From contig CAWGBN010000006.1 in the NCBI GenBank assembly GCA_963820825.1, forward strand, positions 512,001 to 576,000: a stretch of 64,000 nucleotides of DNA, read 5' to 3'. Below are positions 1 to 12,070 of the stretch, piece by piece (positions within the stretch are counted from its first letter, which is position 1; every line of letters begins with the position of its first letter). The notes beneath the pieces are model-generated. The model saw nothing but the letters and a program-made list of their open reading frames with translations. It was not told the origin of the DNA and did no database searches. The translations under genes and the position numbers were made by a program. This DNA is from Vulcanimicrobiota bacterium (GTDB taxonomy: Bacteria; Vulcanimicrobiota; Vulcanimicrobiia; Vulcanimicrobiales; Vulcanimicrobiaceae).

Positions 1-1767
1 ATCGAGAATGTCGATCTTGCCGGAATTGGTGTTCGTCCACGGCGTGACGGTCGTTCCGCCGCCGGCCAGGCTGTAGGTGAGCCGGTAGTCGAAACTGCGA
101 TGGGCCGGATCGGCCATAAACAGCGGCCAGTCGACTTCCGGATTCTGCGACGTGAGGACGGCGCTCGGCTGCAGGTTGATGCCGTTGGCCGCGTCCACGT
201 AGCGGCACTCAACCTCGACGCTCGTATAGCGGTCCCACGGAAAGCCGAAGGCCCGGATTGGGATCACGGTCACGCCGTAGAGGTCGTTGCGCGGCTCGAC
301 GTCGAGCACGTCGCCGACGACCGTAAGATCTTTGCTGACCAGCTTCCCGGGCCGCTGGGTGGTATCAACGTTCTTGAAGTTGACCGTGTAGTTGTAGGTG
401 ACGGGACGAACCATTTGACCGTTGGCGAGAACGCTGCTCCAGTCGACCGATGCCGGTGTCCCGCTGCTGGTCAGTGAAACGGACTGCACGCTGCCGTTAT
501 ACGTCAGGTTGACGTCGATCGAAGCGATCGAGTCGTCCTGAAAGTCGGCATACGATAGTACGGCCACCTTGCGCCGCGCGAAGAACGGATTGTCGAGGTC
601 GACTCTGGTGATGAACTGCGAAAGCGGGATGCCCTCCCGCTGCAGCTCTGCCAACAGACCGGAAAGGTGCGCCTGCGGATAGATCGTGCGAAGTACCGCG
701 GTGCGCTCGGTGACGTCAAAGTTCAACGCCTTCTGGTCGGTCCGCGACAAGTCGACCGACTTGTATGAAAAGCAGGCCGTCGCGGCCGCGCCGCCGGTGA
801 GCGCGATGTCGCTGATGTTGTCGACGGCTTGATTTACCTTGCTCCAGTCGTCCGGCTGATTCGGGTTCGGTGGCGGAAGGCTCGACTCGAAGAAATTCGT
901 CTTGACCAGCTCGTAGCATTCCGCAACCGCACGATCGCGATCGGAGGTTCCGGTGCTGCCCAAGTCGGATTCGGTGACGAACGTGTCGACCTGTATGTTG
1001 ATGACCTTCTCTTCGATAAGCTTGTCGACCGTGTGCTCGATCTGGCTCGAGAAGAACAGAAACCCTCCGCTGTACTGCTGATCGAGATAGGTTTGAACGC
1101 GGTTCCAGTCGGCCGTCATATGCACGTGAAACGCGGGACGCAGCCCGAGAAACTGCAGCGAGTAGATGACGGCGATCGGCGCGAGTTGTCCTTGCAACGC
1201 CTGCTCGAGGATGGTCGCGCCGTATTGGTCGAGCTGCACGGAAAACGTCGCTTGATTGTCGCCGTACAGCGCGGGTTTGGCCGCGTTCTCGATCTTCACC
1301 ACGAACTGCGGTCCGGCGGCGGCCGGCGGCGTCGTGGTCGTCACCGCCGCTGCAGTGGGCGTCGCGGATGCGCTCGCGCCGGTCGAGCCGGTGCTCCCCG
1401 CCGGTGCGGCGGCATCGCCGCTCTCCGCGCCGAGCATCAGGAGCTTTACCGCACCGTCGACGAACGTTACCGGCGAAAGGCGCGGCGTGCTGTTGAGGTT
1501 GAGCTGGCGTTCGATCTGGTTGGCGACCTCCGATAGCGCCGCCGGATCGATGCTGAGGTTGACGTCGAAATCGATGAATCCGCCCGTCCCCGCGCTGCCT
1601 TCATACTCGATCAGCTGGATTTGCGGCGACGAAGCTTTGGTAACCGGGTCCTGTACCATCGTCAGATGCGGCATCATCGGAAGGTAATAGAACTGCAACG
1701 GATCGGATTCGTCCGGAAATACCGAGACGCCGTTGATCACGAAGTACGGTGGATTGAGGTACAGCAT
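1..1767 (-). CDS. Uncharacterised paralogue A of the four-gene cluster; its 3' end runs off the window (>589 aa)
   Basis: Absent from the ORF track because there is no stop in the window. Manual translation from ATG 1767 gives MLYLNPPYFVINGVSVFPDESDPLQFYYLPMMPH...GTGGFIDFDVNL...VKIENAAKPALYGDNQATFSVQLDQYGATILEQALQG...LDNPFFARR...TVTPWTNTNSGKIDILD, open to base 1. It aligns by eye with 1789-4071. Confidence 0.9.
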   Translation of the reverse strand, partial: MLYLNPPYFVINGVSVFPDESDPLQFYYLPMMPHLTMVQDPVTKASSPQIQLIEYEGSAGTGGFIDFDVNLSIDPAALSEVANQIERQLNLNSTPRLSPVTFVDGAVKLLMLGAESGDAAAPAGSTGSTGASASATPTAAAVTTTTPPAAAGPQFVVKIENAAKPALYGDNQATFSVQLDQYGATILEQALQGQLAPIAVIYSLQFLGLRPAFHVHMTADWNRVQTYLDQQYSGGFLFFSSQIEHTVDKLIEEKVINIQVDTFVTESDLGSTGTSDRDRAVAECYELVKTNFFESSLPPPNPNQPDDWSKVNQAVDNISDIALTGGAAATACFSYKSVDLSRTDQKALNFDVTERTAVLRTIYPQAHLSGLLAELQREGIPLSQFITRVDLDNPFFARRKVAVLSYADFQDDSIASIDVNLTYNGSVQSVSLTSSGTPASVDWSSVLANGQMVRPVTYNYTVNFKNVDTTQRPGKLVSKDLTVVGDVLDVEPRNDLYGVTVIPIRAFGFPWDRYTSVEVECRYVDAANGINLQPSAVLTSQNPEVDWPLFMADPAHRSFDYRLTYSLAGGGTTVTPWTNTNSGKIDILD

Positions 1768-1788
1768 TGCGTTCGCAGTCGCTTTCGT

Positions 1789-4071
1789 TTACGACGGCGT
1801 GCTTACGGGCGGCGTGCTCGCCGGCGGATTGAGCACGAGGTCCGTGTCGGTGCTGCTCGCGGGAGCCTGTTTGATGACCGCCGGTGGATTCGTGGCCATG
1901 TAGTAGGTGGCGGTATAGGTGTAGGCCACCTTGGTGGGATCCTTGGTGTAGAACGTCCACGACGGGGGCGTCGCGCCGGTCGATTTTAGTACGATCTCCT
2001 GCTGCAGCGCGATGTTGTTGGCCGGATCCGAATACTGGAACTCGATCTGTACCAGTTTGATCTGCGTAAAATCGAGCAGTGCGGTGTCGGGAGTGACCGT
2101 AACGATCGTCTGGTCCGGCGGACCGAAGGTGACGAGCGTGCCGGTCGCGGGCGTGTCGGGAATATTCTCCTGCGTCTGATTCTTGTACGAGACCACGCCG
2201 CTGTAACTCACTTGTCCGTTTGCGGCGGGGATCATCAAGAACGTCCAGTCGTGCGTGCGGTTGGCTGCGCTGAACTGGTACTCGCTGCTTTGCGTGTACT
2301 TGTTCGTCGCGTCCGTATACGTCATCCGCAGGAAGATGTTGTCGATCGAGTTTGCAAAGTCGCCTTCGCTGATGAACGTGACCGTCTTCGGAATGAAGAT
2401 GTTGTTGATAAACAACTGCTGTGTGTTGTCTTGTTTCGGCGCGGTCACTACTTGCGTGCCGTCGGTCAAGACGTAGGTCACCGTGTACGTATACTGCTTG
2501 TCCACCGGCTTGAGTATAACGACCACGAGCGTTGCGGTGCGCGTGTTCTGATCGAATGCGAATTCTCTGCTGATCGCGGCTCCCGACGGATCGGTGTCGG
2601 GGTATTGCAGCGCGACTTGTACCTGCTTCACCGTCGTCCAATCCACGTTGCTGACGGTCAGGTTGACGTACAGCACGCCCATCGTGCCGACGTCGAGCGT
2701 GGTGACCTGATTCTGAGTGGTGTAGACCGGTGAAGCGTAGGCCTTGCTTTGATCCGCGTAGTTGACGTTGAACTGATACTGGTAATGCATATCGCCGCTG
2801 ACGGTATCGGAATCGAATTTAAGCACGTCGTCGGGCTTCTTGAAGGTGAACCCGGCAACGGTCGGCGGATTGCTCTTGGTGTACTGGCAGTTCACGTCCA
2901 CGCTGACGATGTTGAACGTTTGGAAATCCGCATTGCACTGCATCGTCGCGTGAATTTGCGCAAAGAATGGATCGTTGGCGTTGATCGTCTCGGCGTACTG
3001 CTCGAAGTTGGCGACGTTGGGCAGCGTGCCTTGCTGCACCGTCTCGTAGGCGATGCTGTCGCGTTCGTTGTAATGCTCGTAGAAGCTAAACGAGGCGAAG
3101 CTCGTTTCGTCGCGCGACACGTGCTCCATTCCGTCGTCGCCGCGGTTTTGGCCGAGGTCGCTGCCGACGCTGCTGCCCGTCACGCCGGCGCCGCTGCTCG
3201 ACGAGCTCGAGCCGTCGCCGCTGGTCCCGCCTGAGCTGCTGGTCGCGTTCGAGGCGGCCATCACGCTTTGTACCGCGGTGTTGAGCTGCTGCCAACCCCA
3301 GTTCACGAGATCGTCGTGCAGTTTTTGAACGGTCGAGTCTCCGGTCGGCAAGCCGGTGAAATCGAAGCTCACGCCGCCGCAGTCGGCGCTGACGAAGGCT
3401 TCGCGCATCTTCTCCTGCTCGGTGTTGTCGCCGCTGTCCCAACTGCCGCCGCTCTTGTCGATCGTTTGATGGAACGAGGCGAACTTCACCGCGTCGAACC
3501 AAACCGTTCCCGTAACCGGCGGCAGTGCGGCGGTATAGGTCAGATCGTAGGCGATCTGAACGACCCCGCCCTTGCCTTGCATGGCTCCCTCGACCACGGC
3601 GGCACCCTCGGGCGAGAGCTCGGCGGTGAACGAGCAGATCATCGAACCGAGCAGCGACGGCTTTCCGGCGCTCTCGATCTTCGTCACGAGCGCGCCGCCG
3701 CTGTCCAGCAGCGTTAGCGCTGCCGTCCCCTTGGTGAAGCTCGGCATCGAGATTTCCGCGCTGACGGGGTTGCCTTGAGCGTCTTTGATTCCGCGCGACT
3801 GGACGAGCTTGTCGAGCTCTTGCTGCGCGGCTTTCATTTGATCCGGCGGTATGACGAAGACCGAGTCGAAGATCAAGAAACCCCCGCCTTTGCTCCCGTC
3901 GGGCCGGTCGACCGGCATCAAATACTTGATGAAGTTCAAGACCGGTTTATTCGTCTTGGGATCGATGCGGAAACCCGGCTCACTCGGCATTGCATAGAAG
4001 ACCGCCGGGCGCGAGTCGTCTTCGTAGATGGTGAGGCCGGCGATCAGATGGGCGGGATATAGGCTCAGCAT
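1789..4071 (-). CDS. Uncharacterised paralogue B, 760 aa: core domain, Ser/Gly linker and about four tandem beta-rich repeats
   Basis: Long ORF with SD AAGGAG before ATG 4071; shares motifs with paralogue A; no signal peptide seen. Confidence 0.9.
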   Translation of the reverse strand: MLSLYPAHLIAGLTIYEDDSRPAVFYAMPSEPGFRIDPKTNKPVLNFIKYLMPVDRPDGSKGGGFLIFDSVFVIPPDQMKAAQQELDKLVQSRGIKDAQGNPVSAEISMPSFTKGTAALTLLDSGGALVTKIESAGKPSLLGSMICSFTAELSPEGAAVVEGAMQGKGGVVQIAYDLTYTAALPPVTGTVWFDAVKFASFHQTIDKSGGSWDSGDNTEQEKMREAFVSADCGGVSFDFTGLPTGDSTVQKLHDDLVNWGWQQLNTAVQSVMAASNATSSSGGTSGDGSSSSSSGAGVTGSSVGSDLGQNRGDDGMEHVSRDETSFASFSFYEHYNERDSIAYETVQQGTLPNVANFEQYAETINANDPFFAQIHATMQCNADFQTFNIVSVDVNCQYTKSNPPTVAGFTFKKPDDVLKFDSDTVSGDMHYQYQFNVNYADQSKAYASPVYTTQNQVTTLDVGTMGVLYVNLTVSNVDWTTVKQVQVALQYPDTDPSGAAISREFAFDQNTRTATLVVVILKPVDKQYTYTVTYVLTDGTQVVTAPKQDNTQQLFINNIFIPKTVTFISEGDFANSIDNIFLRMTYTDATNKYTQSSEYQFSAANRTHDWTFLMIPAANGQVSYSGVVSYKNQTQENIPDTPATGTLVTFGPPDQTIVTVTPDTALLDFTQIKLVQIEFQYSDPANNIALQQEIVLKSTGATPPSWTFYTKDPTKVAYTYTATYYMATNPPAVIKQAPASSTDTDLVLNPPASTPPVSTPS

Positions 4072-4092
4072 GGCTCTCTCCTTATGTCCGTA

Positions 4093-5955
4093 TCATGGTG
4101 TTGTCGCGGGAACGGGCGTAAGCGCCGGCTGGGCGCTCGCGGCACTGGCCGATACCGGCGTACCGTCGGCAGCTAGCATCAGCGGTGTGAAAGGTGACTG
4201 CAGCGCCGACCACGCTCCGGCCGGCGCACTCCCCGTCGCCGACTTTCTATAACGGTAGCCGGCTTTGAATGGTGACGAGGCGACGTAGCCCCAGTCGGCG
4301 GATGGTTGGTCCGCGGTTAGCAGCAGTTGCGCGGGAGGCGCGCCGGCGTCTTCATCGTCCTGCGCGATCGCATCGAGCATCAACGCACGATCGCCGCTGC
4401 GCAGTGCCGCGCGAATCGTTACCCGGTGCGGTCCGAACTCGGCAAATGCAGGAAGATCGAGGTCGATGCGCCCTGGTGCGAGCGGCCCGAGCCCCAGCGG
4501 TGCACTTCCGTCGAGCGGCGCGGCGCTCACCGTCAGCGACGGGTCGCTTGCACTGCGCGGCACGGCCATCGAAGCGCCGGTGATCTTTGCGTTGAGAACG
4601 GCCGCAACCCGATGCTGCGCGCCATCGAGTGCATACGTCAGCGTCAGCGTCAGAACGGCAAGCGAGAGCAAGCGGTTCGCGGCGGTCACGTGCGCGAACG
4701 CGACCGGGAAGTCGTCGGCCCCGAGCTGCACCCACGACGAGCTGCGTAGTTGGGGCGGCATCGCGAACTCGCGCACCATTCCCGCGGCGGCAAGCACCGC
4801 AAATCCCGATAGCGTATACGACAGCGTCTCCGCGGGACTGATTTGAAACGTAAGGGAACCGTCGTCATCGGGTTCCGTAAACGCGATCGTCTGCGCGATG
4901 CTGCTCGGTCGAAGCGGTGGATTCGCCGCGACGTTTGCGGTGACGCCGATCGCCGGTACGCCGATGCGGTTCGGCGGCAGATTCGCGTCGACGTCGACCT
5001 TACAGAGTCCCACCTGTAATGCGGGAACGCTGACGTTGCGCACGAGCGCCGCCGTGCCGTTGCGTGCGGCGAATGCGCGCAGCACCGTCAAAATGTCGAG
5101 CATCAGCACCCATTGCCGCCGGCCGATCGCCGGTTGGCTCAAATCCCACTGCACGGCTCCCAACGGCAGCGCTGAGGGGTCGGCGAATGCGACGAAGGAT
5201 GGGTCGGAGCTCGCCGGAGCCGGCGCGCGCGACGCGTACGATGCCAAGATCCGATCGGCGACCGCCGCCGCGAAATCGCCCGTCGTCGCGTCGCCTGCAA
5301 GAATTTTCAGCGGAAACTTTTCCGGCGTGCCCGTAAATGCGGCCAGTACGTCCGGGGCCGAGAGCAGACGTCCCGTCGTGCCCGCGAGCAACGAAGCGAC
5401 GAGCTTCTCCGGCTCGAACGCAACCGTCGTCTCTACCCGGGCGGCAACGCCGAGGGCGTCGAATTCCACCCGTGCACCGAGAAGCAGCGAGCCGCCGGCG
5501 ATCGCGCCTTTGATGAGCTCGCCGGCGTCGGCCGAGAGGCGCGTCGTCCAGCGCGCAAAATCGGCCCCGCTAAAGCCGAGAGGAATCGGCGCGAGCGCGT
5601 CGCTCGATGGTGCGACCTCGCCGGCGGTCGGATAGAGACGTGCAAAACCTCCCGCGGCTGCGATCGGCGTCACCGTCGCGGCGGCGTCGAGCGGCCGAAC
5701 CACGGCGAGCGCGGTATCGAGCTCGAAGTCGCCCGCGAGCGAAAAATCGAGCACCGCATACTGACCGGCCGCGCTGAAATCGCCGGCGCGTTCGACCAGA
5801 TCGAGGGTAAACTTTGGGCTCGCGTCGGCATCGAGCGCGAGCGAGAGCTGTTGCGGCACGACCGCGTAACTTCCGTTTTGGAATGGCGCAAACGCAGTGA
5901 CGCCGGCGGTCGAAATCGGCGCCGAGAAGTCCGGCAAGCCCGAAAACGCGCTCAT
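4093..5955 (-). CDS. Uncharacterised paralogue C, about 620 aa
   Basis: Likely start ATG 5955 (MSAFSGLPDF) overlaps the upstream TGA (TGATG). Carries a divergent copy of the core motif (RWTTRLSADAGELIKGAIAGG). Confidence 0.85.
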   Translation of the reverse strand: MSAFSGLPDFSAPISTAGVTAFAPFQNGSYAVVPQQLSLALDADASPKFTLDLVERAGDFSAAGQYAVLDFSLAGDFELDTALAVVRPLDAAATVTPIAAAGGFARLYPTAGEVAPSSDALAPIPLGFSGADFARWTTRLSADAGELIKGAIAGGSLLLGARVEFDALGVAARVETTVAFEPEKLVASLLAGTTGRLLSAPDVLAAFTGTPEKFPLKILAGDATTGDFAAAVADRILASYASRAPAPASSDPSFVAFADPSALPLGAVQWDLSQPAIGRRQWVLMLDILTVLRAFAARNGTAALVRNVSVPALQVGLCKVDVDANLPPNRIGVPAIGVTANVAANPPLRPSSIAQTIAFTEPDDDGSLTFQISPAETLSYTLSGFAVLAAAGMVREFAMPPQLRSSSWVQLGADDFPVAFAHVTAANRLLSLAVLTLTLTYALDGAQHRVAAVLNAKITGASMAVPRSASDPSLTVSAAPLDGSAPLGLGPLAPGRIDLDLPAFAEFGPHRVTIRAALRSGDRALMLDAIAQDDEDAGAPPAQLLLTADQPSADWGYVASSPFKAGYRYRKSATGSAPAGAWSALQSPFTPLMLAADGTPVSASAASAQPALTPVPATTP

Positions 5956-8075
5956 CAGCCGCTCGTCTGCACGTAAAAGGAGTCCGCGTTCGACGAGGTC
6001 CACTGACCCTGCGTTGTGCCGGTCGCGCTTACGAGATCGACGTGATAGCGATAGTAGGACGTATCCCCGGTCCCGACGACGTACGCCTTGATTGGGACGG
6101 CGAGCGCGACCGTCTGCGTCATCAGCCCGGAAGCGTCGGCTTGCGTGGAGGAATCAAAATCGACGGTCTGGCCGCTGTCGAAGACGACTTGAACGGCTTT
6201 CGGCGGTGGCGTTGCGCCGGCCGGATCGGCCGCAAACATCGAGGCGAACGCCATGACTTTCACGGTGCGTTGTACCGGCCCAACGACCTGATTCGACATG
6301 ATGGCGTCCCAGAGTGCGCTAGGATCGGCCTTGACGCTGGTATGCCCGAAGTCGATCACGACGGTACAATCGCCGGCCGCGCTTTGACCCGCGTCGCCGC
6401 CGTGCGTCGCGAGTCCGACCGCTTCACCGAGCAGGTTCCCCAGATCGCCGGGATTCTGGGGAAGCATACGTATCTTGAGGGTTACGCCGTTGGTGCCGGT
6501 CGTGGCGCTCGCCGGTACGAGATCGACCGGCGGCGTCGGGGTCAGCGTCTGCCCGAGGTCCTGTACTTTGACCGTCGGTTTTCCGGAGACCGGATCGACC
6601 GGCCCTTTCATGATTGCTGCAGGCAGGCTGTCGACGTGCACGGGACTCTCGACCACGTTGGAAATCACGACGTCGAACTCGCTCTGCTCCGCGTCGAAGG
6701 TCGAATTGGCGGCGAGCACGCTGCCGGCGAAATCTCCCGCACGCAAGCTGAAATGAATCGACTCGGTGTCGGACCCGATCGTTACCGTCACGACGCCCGA
6801 AAAGAGTTGGCTGACCTCGTCGAAGAGCGCCGCGTATACTTGTTGCAACTGCGCGAGGGAGAGCGCGATCGAGCAGCTGATGCCGCCGGCGATGTCCACA
6901 ATGGCCGAGCTTTGCGCGACGAGCGCCGGTCCCGATCCATCGCTGGCGGGCAGAGTCAACTGCAACGCGGTGTTGCTCGCTTCGAAGAGATGCATTCCGG
7001 GCAGGACGCTCGCGCGTAGCTCGTTTTGCCACCACGCCGCCGCATTGGCGATTCGATCGGGATTCCAAATGGGGATGGCCAGAAACGAGAGCGTGAAGCG
7101 CATCGTGCCCGCGTCGCCGCCGGTTGCAGCGATCGTGATGTTGGGAGCGTGCGGAGCATCCTGCTGCCGGCTGATCTGGAACGTGTCCGGGAGATAATAG
7201 ACTTGGCTCGGCTGGCGCGCGTCTTGATAGTACGGATACGAGCGGTTGTCGTGCGCGTAGGGCACTTGCGTAACGTTCCACGTCGACTCCCCGCTGCCGA
7301 CGCTGCCGAGCAGCGAGAAGATGTTCTTGTCGAGCACGGGATCGAACGTGAATGGAATCGGGGCATCGATGGCCGTAACGCTCTCGCGGTAGAGCGTCTG
7401 CGCCGTACCCTCCGCCGCGGCAGTCGGAGCTGCGACCGGAAACGAACGCCGGACGATCAGCTGCGCCTGTGCCGATGGATCGGTCATCGCCCGGTAAATC
7501 GAGTCGCGGGCAGCCGGATCGGTGACGGTCAGCGAGAGCGTAAGGTTCGAGCCATCCGACGGTGTCGCGGTGAAATCCCAGTTGGCGGCGAGCCCCTGCA
7601 GATTCGCCGTCAGCAGATAGCGCGTCGTCGTCGGGTCGATCCGCAGAGCGCTGCTCACCAGCGATGGATCCGTAACGTCGGCCAATCCGACGGTGAGGAC
7701 GAACCCGTCGGTATTGGCCACGAACGAGACGTTGTAGCTCTGCGCGCCGCCGCTGCCGATCGTCGCGATCGCGTACTTGGCGAGAAAGTGCTTCTTCGTA
7801 GCATCGGCCGGATCTTCGAAGAGCGTGTCGGCTTTGGGCGTCGCATCCGGCGCGATCAGCGTCGGCAACGAAAAGTTCGAACGCGGAAGCGGGCGACCGA
7901 GCTGCCATCCGACGAAGGCAGGATTGCGCATGTAGAGCAGCGCCGGATTCGCCATGCTGCGCGTTGGAGAGTGAGCGACGGCAGTCGATACCACGACCGG
8001 TCGCGCGACGGTCGCTTGGGGGGCGGTCGAGGGCAACGTTCGGGATGCGCTGCCGTGGAGAGTCATGAATGCCAT
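5955..8075 (-). CDS. Uncharacterised paralogue D, 706 aa, apparently with two copies of the core domain
   Basis: Long ORF; YYQDARQPSQVYYLPD and ISCSIALSLAQLQQVYAALFD match the A/B motifs; SD-like GAGGT upstream. Confidence 0.85.
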   Translation of the reverse strand: MAFMTLHGSASRTLPSTAPQATVARPVVVSTAVAHSPTRSMANPALLYMRNPAFVGWQLGRPLPRSNFSLPTLIAPDATPKADTLFEDPADATKKHFLAKYAIATIGSGGAQSYNVSFVANTDGFVLTVGLADVTDPSLVSSALRIDPTTTRYLLTANLQGLAANWDFTATPSDGSNLTLSLTVTDPAARDSIYRAMTDPSAQAQLIVRRSFPVAAPTAAAEGTAQTLYRESVTAIDAPIPFTFDPVLDKNIFSLLGSVGSGESTWNVTQVPYAHDNRSYPYYQDARQPSQVYYLPDTFQISRQQDAPHAPNITIAATGGDAGTMRFTLSFLAIPIWNPDRIANAAAWWQNELRASVLPGMHLFEASNTALQLTLPASDGSGPALVAQSSAIVDIAGGISCSIALSLAQLQQVYAALFDEVSQLFSGVVTVTIGSDTESIHFSLRAGDFAGSVLAANSTFDAEQSEFDVVISNVVESPVHVDSLPAAIMKGPVDPVSGKPTVKVQDLGQTLTPTPPVDLVPASATTGTNGVTLKIRMLPQNPGDLGNLLGEAVGLATHGGDAGQSAAGDCTVVIDFGHTSVKADPSALWDAIMSNQVVGPVQRTVKVMAFASMFAADPAGATPPPKAVQVVFDSGQTVDFDSSTQADASGLMTQTVALAVPIKAYVVGTGDTSYYRYHVDLVSATGTTQGQWTSSNADSFYVQTSG

Positions 8076-8216
8076 GGACGGCCGCTAAACCTCGAAAACA
8101 GACCGGGGGCTACCAGATTACACTAACGGGCCATGCTTGCCAAGGCTGCGGTCGTTCGCCTTACCGAACGCGCTCGCTCGCTCGCTAAGGGTCCCGGCGG
8201 ACTTTAGTTCCGGCCG

Positions 8217-8570
8217 CTACCCGTGAATGCTGTAGAGTTGCTGCAGTTGGTACGGATTCGCCGTTTGGGTCGTATAGTTGACGTTGATCGTATCGTCGTA
8301 AACCACGGTGATTTTGTTTCCACGCGCTCCGTACTTCACGGTCTCAACCCAGGTTGCCGGATCGCCGCTGATCTGAACGGCGCTCTGCGAGATACTCTGC
8401 ACGGTTTGGGATACCTGAGTCTGGGTACCGCTCTGGCTCTGCCACGCCGGCACGAGATGCGGGAAGCCGCAGTAAAGGGTCCCCGAAGCGCCCTGGAACG
8501 AGAAGACGATCATCACGCCGTCGTCCCACTCAATGGTTACGCCGATCTGCGAGGCGGTCTGCTGGCTCAT
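8217..8570 (-). CDS. Hypothetical protein, 117 aa, Gln/Ser/Thr-rich
   Basis: GGAGG SD upstream of ATG 8570 (MSQQTASQIGV). Confidence 0.7.
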   Translation of the reverse strand: MSQQTASQIGVTIEWDDGVMIVFSFQGASGTLYCGFPHLVPAWQSQSGTQTQVSQTVQSISQSAVQISGDPATWVETVKYGARGNKITVVYDDTINVNYTTQTANPYQLQQLYSIHG

Positions 8571-8659
8571 ATCTCGACCTCCACAACATGCTGGTTTTCG
8601 AGCAGCATAGCCCACTCGATATCCCGCGAGCAAGCAGTTTTCGACAAAGGCGTACTTCC

Positions 8660-9373
8660 TTATTCTAGGGGTGCCGCTTGCTCAGAACTCGGAGTTTTCC
8701 GAAACCGCTCCCAAAGACCGACCAAACCGGTCGTGATGCTGACCACGATCCCAATAAGTCCAATGTTTGAGGAGATCGGTTCGGGCGGCGTGGGCACGAA
8801 AACGGGGATATCGACCTCGCGTGAGTCCACGACGTGTTGCTGACGGTCTAGGGCTTGCAGGACCATGGTGATCACATGGTTGCCGGGTTCGGTCGCCATC
8901 AAATTCCAGCGCCAAGGCGGAGCCGGAGGAGGTGCTTTTGCGCCGAGGCTGCACTCGGGCGCGAGCAGCGTTTGCCGCGTGCGCGCCGCGTCGCCAATTC
9001 TGTCAACGGTGAAGCCGGGTGCGTCGACGAGTACTTGATAGGCCACGATCGTGCTGCCGGAGCATCCGGTTCCCGTCGTCAGCGGTCGCAACGCCAGCGT
9101 AATCGTTTCGTACAGGGCAATCGACTCAGGGTCTTTGACGATATCCTGGGGCCCGTTGGGGAGCCACTTACTGCCGTCGATTTGGGTCGTAATATCGTTG
9201 AATGGCGGCTGCGTCAACGCGATCTCCACCGAGTTGAAGCGGTACGCCTTAGCCGCGAGCTGTATGTCCCGGTCGTAGAGCCACCAGCGCACCCCCACAA
9301 TGCCTGCCACGATCGCGGCGATCGCGGCGATCGCGAACCAGATGCGCGACGACGACCGCCGTGGAGAGACCAT
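8660..9373 (-). CDS. Hypothetical membrane protein: N- and C-terminal TM helices around a beta-rich domain
   Basis: Hydrophobic segments IWFAIAAIAAIVAGIVGV and IGLIGIVVSITTGLVGLW. Confidence 0.7.
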   Translation of the reverse strand: MVSPRRSSSRIWFAIAAIAAIVAGIVGVRWWLYDRDIQLAAKAYRFNSVEIALTQPPFNDITTQIDGSKWLPNGPQDIVKDPESIALYETITLALRPLTTGTGCSGSTIVAYQVLVDAPGFTVDRIGDAARTRQTLLAPECSLGAKAPPPAPPWRWNLMATEPGNHVITMVLQALDRQQHVVDSREVDIPVFVPTPPEPISSNIGLIGIVVSITTGLVGLWERFRKTPSSEQAAPLE

Positions 9374-9384
9374 CGAACGATCCC

Positions 9385-9810
9385 TTACGCCGCGTCGACG
9401 TAGCAGCTAACGGATTGGACTGCGCTTCCCGTCGAAGCGAACGGCGAGACGAACTTCAGCGTGCTTCCCGAGGAGCGCAAGACCCCGTATTGGGAAACGG
9501 CCGAACTGCCGTTGCGCAGGGCACAGCGAAAGCGTACCGCGGTTGCGCCGGCGGGAGCGGTATACTTCAGCGTAACGTTGACGAAGTAGTTCACATTGCC
9601 GGCCGGAGACGGCTCGAGCACGAAGGAACAGCTCGTGATTGCGACGCCGTGGCCGCTTCCGGAGTCGGAACATGGCATCGGCGGTGCCGGCGATCCGGCG
9701 GCACGAGCGGGGAGGGAGGCAATCGCACCCGTTCCGAGCGCCACCGCCGCCACGACCGCCGGCAGCCGGCGTGCTAGGTAAAGTAATATCGCGATCATCA
9801 TCTTTACCAT
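9385..9810 (-). CDS. Small secreted Cys-containing beta-rich protein
   Basis: Signal-like N-terminus ending PARA; start codon uncertain; resembles 12379-12783. Confidence 0.65.
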   Translation of the reverse strand: MVKMMIAILLYLARRLPAVVAAVALGTGAIASLPARAAGSPAPPMPCSDSGSGHGVAITSCSFVLEPSPAGNVNYFVNVTLKYTAPAGATAVRFRCALRNGSSAVSQYGVLRSSGSTLKFVSPFASTGSAVQSVSCYVDAA

Positions 9811-9916
9811 GTATTCTAGCGTCAGGAGATTATGAACTTCAAGCAAACGGAGAGTCCCACACCTCTCCAAAAAGTCGTCGACCCGAAGTCGGGCTTGGCG
9901 CTCATTCGGCGCTAGC

Positions 9917-10624
9917 GTGTTTGCAAACAGCGATCCGGCAAAGCGCGCGGTGGGCTACGCCGCGGTCGACCGCTTCGTTCGCGACGGCGCGTGCATCGGG
10001 CTTGGAACCGGCACGACCGCATACTGGGCGATCGAACGCGTCGGGCAACGTGTCGCTGCGGGGGAGAAGATCTCCGCGGTTCCTACCTCGAGCGAGACCG
10101 AACGACTCTGCCGTCAACTGGGAATCCCGATTGCGGCGCTGCTGGATCGACCGATGGCAATCGCGATCGACGGGGCGGACGAAGTCGCGCCCGATTGGTC
10201 GCTGACGAAGGGCGGCGGCGGCGCGCTCTTTCGCGAGAAGGTCGTGGCATTCTCGGCCGAGCGATACGTCGTGATCGTTACCGAAGCGAAGCTCGTTCCC
10301 GCCTTGGGCCGCTTTCCGCTGCCGGTCGAGATCGTCCAGTATGCCGCGCCGTACGTTCGGCGCGAGATCGAGCGGTGTTTGGCCGGCGTCGAGGTGAAGC
10401 GGCGCGAAACCGGCGGAGAGCCCTTCGTAACCGACAATGGGAACTGGATCTTCGATTGCCACTTCGGGCGAATCGAGGATCCGCCAACCCTCGACGCGGC
10501 CTTGCGCGCCGTTTCCGGCGTCGTTGCGACGGGGATCTTCGCCGGTATAGCAGACGAAGTGCTGGTCGGCGACGACAACGGCCAAGTCCGCTCGCTCCCT
10601 CGCGTGAAGACTTTGAGAAACTAG
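9917..10624 (+). CDS. rpiA: Ribose-5-phosphate isomerase A
   Basis: GLGTGTT, IDGADEV, KGGGGALFREK and TDNGN motifs. Confidence 0.95.
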   Translation: MFANSDPAKRAVGYAAVDRFVRDGACIGLGTGTTAYWAIERVGQRVAAGEKISAVPTSSETERLCRQLGIPIAALLDRPMAIAIDGADEVAPDWSLTKGGGGALFREKVVAFSAERYVVIVTEAKLVPALGRFPLPVEIVQYAAPYVRREIERCLAGVEVKRRETGGEPFVTDNGNWIFDCHFGRIEDPPTLDAALRAVSGVVATGIFAGIADEVLVGDDNGQVRSLPRVKTLRN

Positions 10625-10693
10625 CTTCACGAGCTATTCTCAGGCTCGGCATAGCATGGCGCCCAGAGTCTACCTAAAACGGGAGCGAGTACC

Positions 10694-12070
10694 ATGCTGA
10701 TTCCGAACGACAGATATACCGGCCGCATTTGCGCGGCGTTGCTCGCGGCGAGCGCCGCATCACTCTCCGGGTGCTACAGCGCAGCCGTATCGGGCATGCC
10801 GCCTTCGGCACCGATCAACGCGCTGCGCAAAACGGCGAGCCCGATCAAGCACGTGGTCTTCATCATTCAGGAGAACCGGTCGTTCAACAATCTCTTCATG
10901 GGCTATCCCGGCACGGCCACGCAGAGCTACGGCTACGATACCTCCGGCAATAAGATCGACTTGCAACCCGAAGATCTCTCGACCATCTGGGATATCGACC
11001 ACTCCGCGAACGCCTTCTTCGCCGCGTGCGACGGAACGGGGAGCCTGCCGGGAACCGATTGCAAGATGGACGGCTGGAACAACGAGATTTCGACGCTGCA
11101 TCACCCCCCGAACCCCGCCTACTCCTACGTGCCGCGAAACCAGATCACGCCGTATTGGACGATGGCGCAGCGATACGTCCTCTCCGACGAAAACTTTACT
11201 TCGAGCCTCGATGCGAGCTTTTCGTCGCATCAGTACGCCGTCGCGGCATACGCGCACCGTGCGGTGAATGGCCCGAGCGGCGACTGGGGTTGCGAGGGCG
11301 ACAAGAGCGACACGATTGCAACGCTCACCGATGCGCGTACGTACGGTCCACGCGTCGCGCCGTGTTTCGACTCTCCGACGCTCGGGCGCGAGGCAGACAA
11401 GGCGGGACTGACGTGGCGCTTTTACGCCGAGGCGGTCGGCGACCTCGGCGGTATGTGGTCTGCATATCAAGCCGACCGCGAAGTCTATAAAGGCGCCGAT
11501 TGGACGAGGAACGTCATCAGCCCGTCGTCACGCTTCCTGACCGACGTCGCAAACGGCCAACTGGCGAACATCACCTGGATCACGCCGACCTTTGCCGCGT
11601 CGGATCATGCCGGTTTTCTCGCCGGCGAGGGACCGGCATGGGTCGCCTCGCTCGTCGACGCGATTGGGAAGAGCAAGTATTGGAAGAGCACGGCAATCTT
11701 CATTACCTGGGACGACTGGGGCGGATTCTTCGATCCGGTTCAACCGGTCTTCATGGATTACGACGGACTCGGTTTTCGCGTACCGCTCATCGTCGTGTCA
11801 CCCTATGCGAAAAAAGGATCGGTCACGCACGTCCAATACGAAACGGCCAGCGTGCTGCGCTTCATCGAAGGTAACTTCGGCTTGCGGCAGCTCGGCGCCA
11901 GCGATACGCGCGCGAACGATCCGGGAAAGGATCCCGCGATCTTCGATTTCCAGCAGCCGCCGCGGAAGTTCAAGAAGATTCCGGGGGCGCAGCCGTCGCA
12001 GTTTTGGGAGCGGTTGGAGCGCTCGTCACGAACGCGTTACAAATCGGTAGAGATCCTCGGCAGCGATTAG
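10694..12070 (+). CDS. Phosphoesterase / phospholipase C family protein (alkaline phosphatase superfamily), probable lipoprotein
   Basis: [24 protein letters not shown] and GFRVPLIVVSPY motifs; LSGC lipobox-like sequence. Confidence 0.9.
   Translation: MLIPNDRYTGRICAALLAASAASLSGCYSAAVSGMPPSAPINALRKTASPIKHVVFIIQENRSFNNLFMGYPGTATQSYGYDTSGNKIDLQPEDLSTIWDIDHSANAFFAACDGTGSLPGTDCKMDGWNNEISTLHHPPNPAYSYVPRNQITPYWTMAQRYVLSDENFTSSLDASFSSHQYAVAAYAHRAVNGPSGDWGCEGDKSDTIATLTDARTYGPRVAPCFDSPTLGREADKAGLTWRFYAEAVGDLGGMWSAYQADREVYKGADWTRNVISPSSRFLTDVANGQLANITWITPTFAASDHAGFLAGEGPAWVASLVDAIGKSKYWKSTAIFITWDDWGGFFDPVQPVFMDYDGLGFRVPLIVVSPYAKKGSVTHVQYETASVLRFIEGNFGLRQLGASDTRANDPGKDPAIFDFQQPPRKFKKIPGAQPSQFWERLERSSRTRYKSVEILGSD

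Follow-up and report, generated by a model that had tools for sequence, protein, structure and literature searches.

What kind of machine is encoded by a row of large, adjacent, co-oriented genes whose products belong to no recognisable family? The question is raised by the left end of a 64,000-nucleotide (nt) stretch of a Vulcanimicrobiota bacterium genome (GenBank assembly GCA_963820825.1, contig CAWGBN010000006.1, positions 512,001 to 576,000; G000:C6:512001-576000), referred to here as the window; the genome, G000, comprises 2.98 Mb in 9 contigs with 64% G+C and is 85.4% complete. A first-pass annotation had reported four co-oriented open reading frames (ORFs) of 706, about 620, 760 and more than 589 amino acids (aa), and all four are confirmed on the minus strand of the window: gene A (5955..8075; 706 aa), which opens the conserved core; gene B (4093..5955; 620 aa from its ATG, or 636 aa from an upstream GTG); gene C (1789..4071; 760 aa); and gene D (1..1767; 589 codons, open at the edge of the window), which is 783 aa when read whole (G000:C6:511416-513767, minus strand). 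The labels of that annotation run from left to right on the plus strand, and its A and B are D and C here. The four ORFs open an operon that moves horizontally and comprises at least seven genes, A-B-C-D-E-E2-F. Its products may form a hetero-oligomeric conflict machine that acts on membranes, with the fifth protein, E, armed by cleavage or by terpenoid lipidation; this is the reading preferred below, but it is a tentative one, held with well under even confidence.

Reading of the minus-strand junctions bore out the reported TGATG overlap and two 21-bp gaps. At the A/B junction (5953..5957, ggcTGATGagc) the ATG of B and the stop codon of A share one base; the B/C spacer (4072..4092) is 21 nt long and contains the Shine-Dalgarno-like sequence aaggagag; and the C/D spacer (1768..1788) is also 21 nt long. 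The products of genes A to D are all acidic, with net charges of -17 to -36, and their highest 19-residue Kyte-Doolittle means are 1.68, 1.38, 1.14 and 1.61, respectively. By this measure no signal-peptide-like or clear transmembrane-like hydrophobic stretch was found in any of the four, in agreement with the earlier statement that they lack an obvious signal peptide or transmembrane helix.

The expectation that the operon continues past the left edge of the window was correct, and E, E2 and F were located in the left flank (G000:C6:497001-516000, locus L001). E is a third close paralogue beside C and D and starts 16 nt past D. In this assembly it is a 1080-aa ORF, and comparison with the corresponding Cybelea locus (L003) places a frame change just after codon 688 (C6:509335; L001 12335, minus strand), with a true E of about 758 aa and a shifted frame that runs on into E2. 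Across six other genomes of the phylum, the open frame that covers the N-terminal E match measures 754-771 aa in five and 905 aa in one; the frame change in G000 may reflect either an error of sequencing or genuine inactivation. E2 (318 aa) lies 8 nt past the inferred stop of E, and F (304 aa) overlaps the stop of E2.

Conservation of this layout was assessed by a scan for relatives with one genome per species, which gave 119 confirmed relatives, with 80 loci kept; 46 of these are fully flanked (at least 7 kb upstream and at least 7.5 kb downstream of D), and their ORFs were assigned with family hidden Markov models (HMMs). C, D and E are present in all 46, B in 45 and A in 41, and homologues occurring singly, with no conserved clustering, were not seen. 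Further families are present less often: c3 and E2 in 32 loci each, c7F/F in 22 and c6 in 16. The core order A-B-(c3)-C-D-E is the same in all 46, the full arrangement is almost always A-B-(c3)-C-D-E-(c6)-(second E)-E2-c7F, and an accessory gene directly follows E in 38 of the 46 loci. The genes are tightly packed, with a median A-B gap of 3 nt among 59 related loci (no more than 30 nt in 53 of them), a median C-D gap of 24 nt among 75 loci, and medians of -1 nt for B-c3, 25 nt for D-E, 10 nt for E-E2 and -4 nt for E2-c7F/F.

The carriers belong to about a dozen bacterial phyla. By label, these are Vulcanimicrobiota, Acidobacteriota, Pseudomonadota (alpha, beta and gamma), Cyanobacteriota, Bacteroidota, Verrucomicrobiota, Chloroflexota, Nitrospirota, Bacillota, Actinomycetota, Myxococcota and Desulfobacterota, and two more metagenome-assembled genomes (MAGs) are labelled Methanosarcinales, their archaeal origin being a matter of the label alone. 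For the genes of the cluster, the closest relatives of G000 are MAGs labelled Candidatus Cybelea, of the phylum Vulcanimicrobiota (formerly Eremiobacterota). Among close relatives of G000 the cluster occurs in one of 61 genomes, namely G000 itself, and in the phylum it occurs in 7 of 301 genomes and 3 of 100 genera. In Lysobacter it is carried by 19 of 25 species genomes, and the six that lack it are among the smaller genomes (4.4-4.8 Mb). Relatives were found in three plasmid records and in no phage record. A divergent cluster on plasmid p2 of Pararhizobium qamdonense (NZ_CP119567.1, 900 kb; L082 2380-19444) keeps the gene order, in the form A-B-C-C-D-(304 aa)-(588 aa)-E, and all eight consecutive genes are annotated in RefSeq as hypothetical proteins. 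The patchy spread is typical of accessory systems.

A FastTree phylogeny was built from 62 sequences of B, C, D and E, sampled at 15 loci that represent 10 phyla. Each of the four paralogues forms one clade (Shimodaira-Hasegawa-like support 99-100) that holds all 15 sampled loci, and the grouping of loci looks much alike inside the four clades, with Cybelea joined to an acidobacterium and a sphingomonad, and Leptolyngbya to a Methanosarcinales MAG. One clade per paralogue together with similar grouping of loci implies that the duplications are older than the spread and that the whole cluster travels together. An obligate hetero-oligomer would be expected to show a fixed gene order, tight coupling and a single ancient clade for each paralogue, as is the case here. 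The proposal of the first-pass annotation that these proteins form a hetero-oligomer appears reasonable, but none of the results indicates a pore, ring or tube, the kinds of assembly that it gave as examples.

How closely the subunits are related differs from pair to pair. A by-eye alignment of C with D had been offered earlier, and it holds up: BLASTP aligns the two proteins in three collinear segments (E=2e-14, 1e-10 and 4e-6), and C, D and E match one another in profile-profile comparison (hhalign) with 100% probability. The accompanying claim that the 620-aa and 706-aa proteins are more divergent copies is correct for the former and only in part for the latter. B aligns with C at 97.4% probability (E=1e-11) over 534 collinear columns that begin at both N-termini, and at 98.3% in a separate run; in sequence-to-profile comparison B also cross-matches E, c3, C and D. 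The c3 protein, about 285 aa long and present in many other genomes, equals the N-terminal domain alone (98-99% versus C and D). A gave no sequence-to-profile cross match at 1e-5, and its hhalign comparison with B gave 0.9% in one run and 72% in another; with D, it gave 25.6% over 94 columns centred on QPSQVYYLPD. An HMM of the N-terminal subdomain, built from the first 125 or so residues of B, C, D, E and c3 and run against a database of 10,038 ORFs, matched 21 of the 68 ORFs of the A family with E<1e-3, the best at 1.3e-7, and none of the family-less ORFs. The significant matches in A all fall within one mid-protein stretch of about 80-115 residues; the A protein of the window itself scored only E=0.0069. 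Within the shared subdomain, the Pro of 'YYLP' is the sole residue conserved across all five families. Taken together, the profile comparisons indicate that B, C, D, E and c3 are one superfamily, in which B is a true but distant paralogue over nearly its whole length, and that A, which shares at least one subdomain, is connected to the superfamily only through this 'YYLP' subdomain of about 90 residues. A also has a weak internal repeat (residues 86-225 versus 283-441, 77%). In separate hhalign comparisons, A, B and c3 also matched the final 100 or so columns of the E alignment; these matches were rejected as an artefact of the out-of-frame tail of E from G000.

The architecture of the proteins is modular. 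B, C, D and E each have an N-terminal mixed alpha/beta 'YYLP' module of about 390 aa with disordered loops, and C, D and E end in tandem repeats of about 95 aa. Self-comparison detected four tandem repeats of about 95-100 aa in D (388-783) and in C (357-750), and none in B. C accordingly consists of the 'YYLP' module (about 1-365), with a Ser/Gly-rich loop, and its four repeats, and A consists of an N-terminal extension of about 280 aa, the 'YYLP' subdomain (about 279-380) and a C-terminal part to which no kind is assigned. In an AlphaFold2 model of D based on 40 sequences (mean predicted local distance difference test score, pLDDT, 78; predicted template modelling score, pTM, 0.42), residues 397-783 are folded into four beta-sandwiches that resemble immunoglobulin (Ig) or fibronectin type III (FN3) domains, most of this region scoring above 85 in pLDDT. 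Residues 1-395, the N-terminal module, are modelled as mixed alpha/beta with pLDDT of about 65-89, including very long strands at 198-220 and 347-362 and a 27-residue helix at 266-292; disordered loops lie at 115-160 and 303-330. When the model was compared with the PDB in Foldseek, over 300 matches had E<1e-3, with template modelling (TM) scores no higher than 0.20, and the rows shown are mostly tandem-sandwich proteins: adhesin extenders, TIE of Bacillus anthracis, alpha2-macroglobulin, complement, thioester-containing proteins (TEPs) and pilins. These searches report the C-terminal sandwiches only, the N-terminal module being barely probed within a 783-aa model. The C-terminal half of D is therefore, as modelled, a generic Ig/FN3-like array, four beta-sandwiches in a row like those of tandem Ig/FN3/macroglobulin-domain proteins such as the extender regions of adhesins (6xi3), TIE of B. 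anthracis (6fwv) and alpha2-macroglobulin (6tav).

The absence of any recognisable family, claimed from reading of the sequence, was upheld by the profile libraries: for A-E there was no significant match in Pfam, NCBIfam, PADLOC or PHROGs, and none in the PDB when searched by sequence and with the five family profiles. At E values up to 1, Pfam returned nothing for A, B or D and only two unrelated sub-threshold rows for C, and a Pfam scan of 40 homologues of D gave nothing consistent. The best 120 of 215 matches to D and all 42 matches to A are unnamed or 'hypothetical protein' entries without a Pfam domain. The ESM Atlas returned only unnamed clusters or one 'Ig-like' entry, and a named-only search of residues 1-400 gave no usable match. 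No longer fused forms of D were found, which is weak evidence. Tc toxins have recognisable domains (VRP1, TcdB middle/N, RHS/YD repeats), and the same Pfam search, with its two sub-threshold rows in C, found none of these families. Neither gasdermin nor MACPF/CDC was matched in Pfam, and the fold searches with D, which barely covered the N-terminal module, returned only the C-terminal sandwiches. No published description of the cluster was found by full-text searches of the literature, in which proteins that carry no searchable name cannot be proven absent. Across the sequence libraries searched, A-E thus appear to match no named kind of system, the fold of the N-terminal module not having been compared on its own.

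The accessory genes behind E offer clues to chemistry that may act on it. The c6 protein is a bare caspase domain of about 310 aa (Peptidase_C14, PF00656, E=1.2e-23, 84.5 bits versus a cut-off of 21.4), and its catalytic dyad, the His of SGHG and the Cys of DCCH, is kept in 20 of 20 members. It is absent at the window's own locus, and in most of the 16 loci that have it, c6 stands in the place of E2, which 14 of the 46 loci lack. The F/c7F profile matches, in the PDB, 8paj (3e-10, over the full length), 8pak (1.1e-8), 1gsz (3.4e-7) and the 'prenylcyclase' 6ij1 (2.6e-5), and also matches squalene-hopene cyclase; its consensus contains LPxDADDTA, of which D81, D83 and T85 are invariant. By profile and acid motif, F/c7F meets the description of a single-domain class II terpene cyclase of the MstE type, this activity being a prediction. 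E2 belongs to a family of 677 representative clusters, and the sole matches that recur in it are to aromatic prenyltransferases of the DMATS type, in each case under the cut-off. Pfam Trp_DMAT was matched by 7 of 111 members (best 4.3e-6, all under the 25-bit cut-off), the TIGR03429 model of dimethylallyltryptophan synthases (DMATS) by two of three stand-alone members (6.8e-4 and 6.6e-3), and the top row of the PDB search was 4yzj (E=0.11). Fusions of E2 to a cyclase, of about 700 aa, exist; among the E2-domain proteins P0165, P0172 and P0264 (about 634-702 aa), the C-terminal parts of P0165 and P0172 match squalene-cyclase families, which points to fusion, and probably functional coupling, of the two enzymes.

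E itself differs according to the gene that follows it. Copies before E2 have a median length of 988 aa and linkers of up to about 230 residues, and those before c6 have a median length of 749 aa and a different linker. Apart from the window's lineage and the loci most closely allied to it, nearly all E proteins before E2 carry a conserved motif within the otherwise low-complexity linker: GDPxDRVxxIxG, followed after about 10 residues by [W/Y/F][R/H]GxLxRP (L036, L040, L060, L027 and many others; for example, L036 12402-15818). The prenyltransferase-cyclase pair may recognise or modify E at this motif. A chemical precedent is NctPC, which a 2026 review (PMC13290415) describes as a fusion of an ABBA-barrel prenyltransferase with an MstE-like cyclase; the enzyme puts a geranylgeranyl group on a peptide Trp and then cyclises the lipid. 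Compared by that description, the DMATS/ABBA-like E2 and the MstE-like F/c7F, which are adjacent, overlapping or fused here, look like a split version of NctPC; the difference is that E2/F sits behind a protein of about 760-1100 aa in an operon of five paralogues, rather than in an obvious short-peptide cluster.

As an observation apart from the enzymes behind E, three loci, L009, L010 and L012, which belong to one acidobacterium and two alphaproteobacteria, encode a Peptidase_S8 subtilase of 448-507 aa immediately upstream of A on the same strand. This adds a third type of protease to those associated with the cluster.

In the preferred reading, the five proteins A-E would assemble into one soluble hetero-oligomeric particle, and E, the last subunit and the one with the longest disordered linker, would be modified by the product encoded directly behind it. 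Arming could proceed by either of two routes: the caspase-like c6 may cut E, or E2 and F may attach a cyclised polyprenyl group to one of the aromatic residues of E, as the review describes for NctPC. More speculatively, arming would send the particle to a membrane, and its purpose would be attack or defence rather than housekeeping. Two known kinds of system resemble such a scheme. Multi-component pore-forming toxins (Hbl/Nhe/AhlABC, YaxAB/XaxAB) are soluble, side-by-side diverged paralogues, some without classical signals, that are thought to act only jointly. The A-E operon is likewise a set of side-by-side diverged paralogues, but no sequence similarity to these toxins was found, and its proteins are two to three times as large, are five or six in number, end in Ig/FN3-like domains, and contain no known membrane-inserting element, the fold of the N-terminal module being outside the comparison. 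In bacterial gasdermin-protease operons, which have a patchy accessory distribution, a caspase-like peptidase is encoded after the effector, much as c6 follows E in this patchy accessory cluster; the differences are that nothing here matches Pfam Gasdermin, that c6 is a bare domain with no visible room for a sensor, and that c6 is present in only 16 of 46 loci.

Several observations weigh against this proposal. No result points directly to membranes. Fold matches of D are confined to its C-terminal sandwiches, and the N-terminal module may have a known fold, whether pore-forming or not. PADLOC-DB v2 returned no families for eight locus proteins at E values up to 0.1. Eight of the 46 loci have neither a protease nor E2 beside E, and the likeness of E2 to DMATS-type aromatic prenyltransferases, as scored by profiles, is beneath every curated cut-off. 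In the window's own lineage, F reads DADSTA instead of DADDTA, and the E linker has neither the conserved motif nor any Trp. The frame change in E in this assembly may mean that the system is inactive here. A fuller version of the proposal is doubtful: that this is an unrecognised class of machine, in which an ancient protein composed of a 'YYLP' module plus a sandwich array was duplicated at least four times and spread as a single block among about a dozen bacterial phyla and Methanosarcinales-labelled genomes, and in which E is armed by a caspase-like cut or by a cyclised C10-C20 terpenoid and the armed particle attacks a membrane.

The main rival to a membrane-acting conflict machine is an antibacterial particle released outside the cell, or else a module that serves contractile injection systems as accessory or cargo, in which signal-less peptidoglycan hydrolases would be cargo or release enzymes. 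In G000 the operon is followed, after F, by an SLT transglycosylase, a Peptidase_M15_4 protein and a third protein of 400-500 aa without a family (L001 7637-10484, minus strand; G000:C6:504637-507484), all of them signal-less and the last two with Ser/Asp-rich disordered N-termini of about 100 residues. Relatives of these wall-type genes stay beside the cluster, rearranged, in two allied genomes, and a scan of 141 flanking ORFs from 43 other loci found peptidoglycan-related domains beside 8 of them. In Leptolyngbya, gp25, Baseplate_J and Tail_P2_I are encoded directly after E, on its strand (L019 15205-18889), and in a Methanosarcinales-labelled genome Pvc16_N, sheath and gp19 tube genes start 1.9 kb past the cluster on the same strand (L046 18904-23073). 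Such neighbours are, however, found at only these 2 of 80 loci, and a link to contractile injection was rejected as a general rule. Moreover, searches of the 85.4% complete G000 assembly for gp25 and sheath (PF04965, PF04984) found neither; there is no PHROG match and no phage record with a relative; the Ser/Asp-rich hydrolases are confined to the window's lineage (G000 and L003); and a housekeeping role is possible for some of the wall enzymes in the flanks. With extracellular contractile injection systems (eCIS) of the Afp/PVC type, the A-E island has in common that it is a large multi-gene accessory set of signal-less proteins, two relatives of which adjoin baseplate, sheath and tube genes, but A-E match no sheath, tube or baseplate family. 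The decision of the first-pass annotation to assign the proteins to neither type VI secretion systems, eCIS nor Tc toxins stands at the sequence level in spite of those two loci. A released particle is considered unlikely, and the three remaining explanations are less likely still.

One of these is a structural assembly outside conflict, for example a scaffold, sheath or lattice in the cytoplasm or envelope that serves a lifestyle trait such as gliding, predation or differentiation. Tandem Ig/FN3-like sandwiches are found in adhesins, pilins and S-layer proteins, and nearly genus-wide carriage in Lysobacter of several non-redundant paralogues would suit such a role, but it is improbable for proteins with no export signal that are very patchy elsewhere, whose clades cross phyla in a way that fits transfer, and to which a caspase-like protease and lipidation enzymes are linked. 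Production by E2 and F of a terpenoid-modified peptide or small molecule, with the large proteins as precursor, scaffold or carrier, has in its favour the resemblance of the pair to NctPC as described in the review cited, the short conserved motif in the disordered linker of E and the proteases nearby. It is harder still to credit given that 14 of 46 loci do without E2 and 16 have c6, mostly in its place, and that five proteins of about 600-800 aa are invariant and the enzymes vary. Least credible of all, and very improbable, is a distant analogue of the alpha2-macroglobulin/TEP protease traps, composed of sandwich arrays, a bait-like loop and a separate toroid protein. The top Foldseek rows do include alpha2-macroglobulin, A2ML1, complement C5 and TEP1r (E about 1e-7), disordered loops are present, and one E2-cyclase fusion weakly matched TED_complement (0.0028); however, the alpha2-macroglobulin and TEP matches to the D model reflect the generic sandwich only, with TM-scores of at most 0.09, no thioester motif is visible in the consensus of the toroid (F/c7F), and there was no alpha2-macroglobulin match by sequence in Pfam or the PDB.

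Whichever explanation applies, five invariant large proteins without a family, encoded in one order in about a dozen phyla, represent a piece of cell biology that has no name. Lysobacter is open to genetic work, and carriage of the cluster by most sampled species of this culturable genus makes its function directly testable. If the membrane-acting conflict machine is real and E is either terpenoid-lipidated or processed by a caspase, then protein lipidation or proteolytic arming would be tied to a new type of assembly; in the case of lipidation, this would be the first NctPC-type chemistry at the scale of a protein, and a bacterial counterpart of sterol-type protein anchors. Profile models of the A-E families would allow thousands of 'hypothetical proteins' to be grouped.

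Upstream of A is a region of 141 nt (8076..8216, minus strand) that is likely to be the operon leader or promoter region; it contains no consensus promoter, and scans for promoters and terminators gave results at the level of shuffled sequence. No Rfam family was found in positions 1-10700 of the window, and no tRNA is nearby. Directly above A are three small minus-strand ORFs without family matches (U1-U3; window 8217-9870), of which the one at 8660-9373 is hydrophobic at both ends and the one at 9385-9870 has a signal-like N-terminus. They were rejected as members of the system, U1 being present in 2 of 80 loci without synteny, and U2 and U3 in 0 of 80. Elsewhere in the flanks of related loci, TIR-SIR2, a KAP nucleoside triphosphatase, patatin and a transposase were each encountered as singletons, as was a TrwC relaxase encoded after E in L017.

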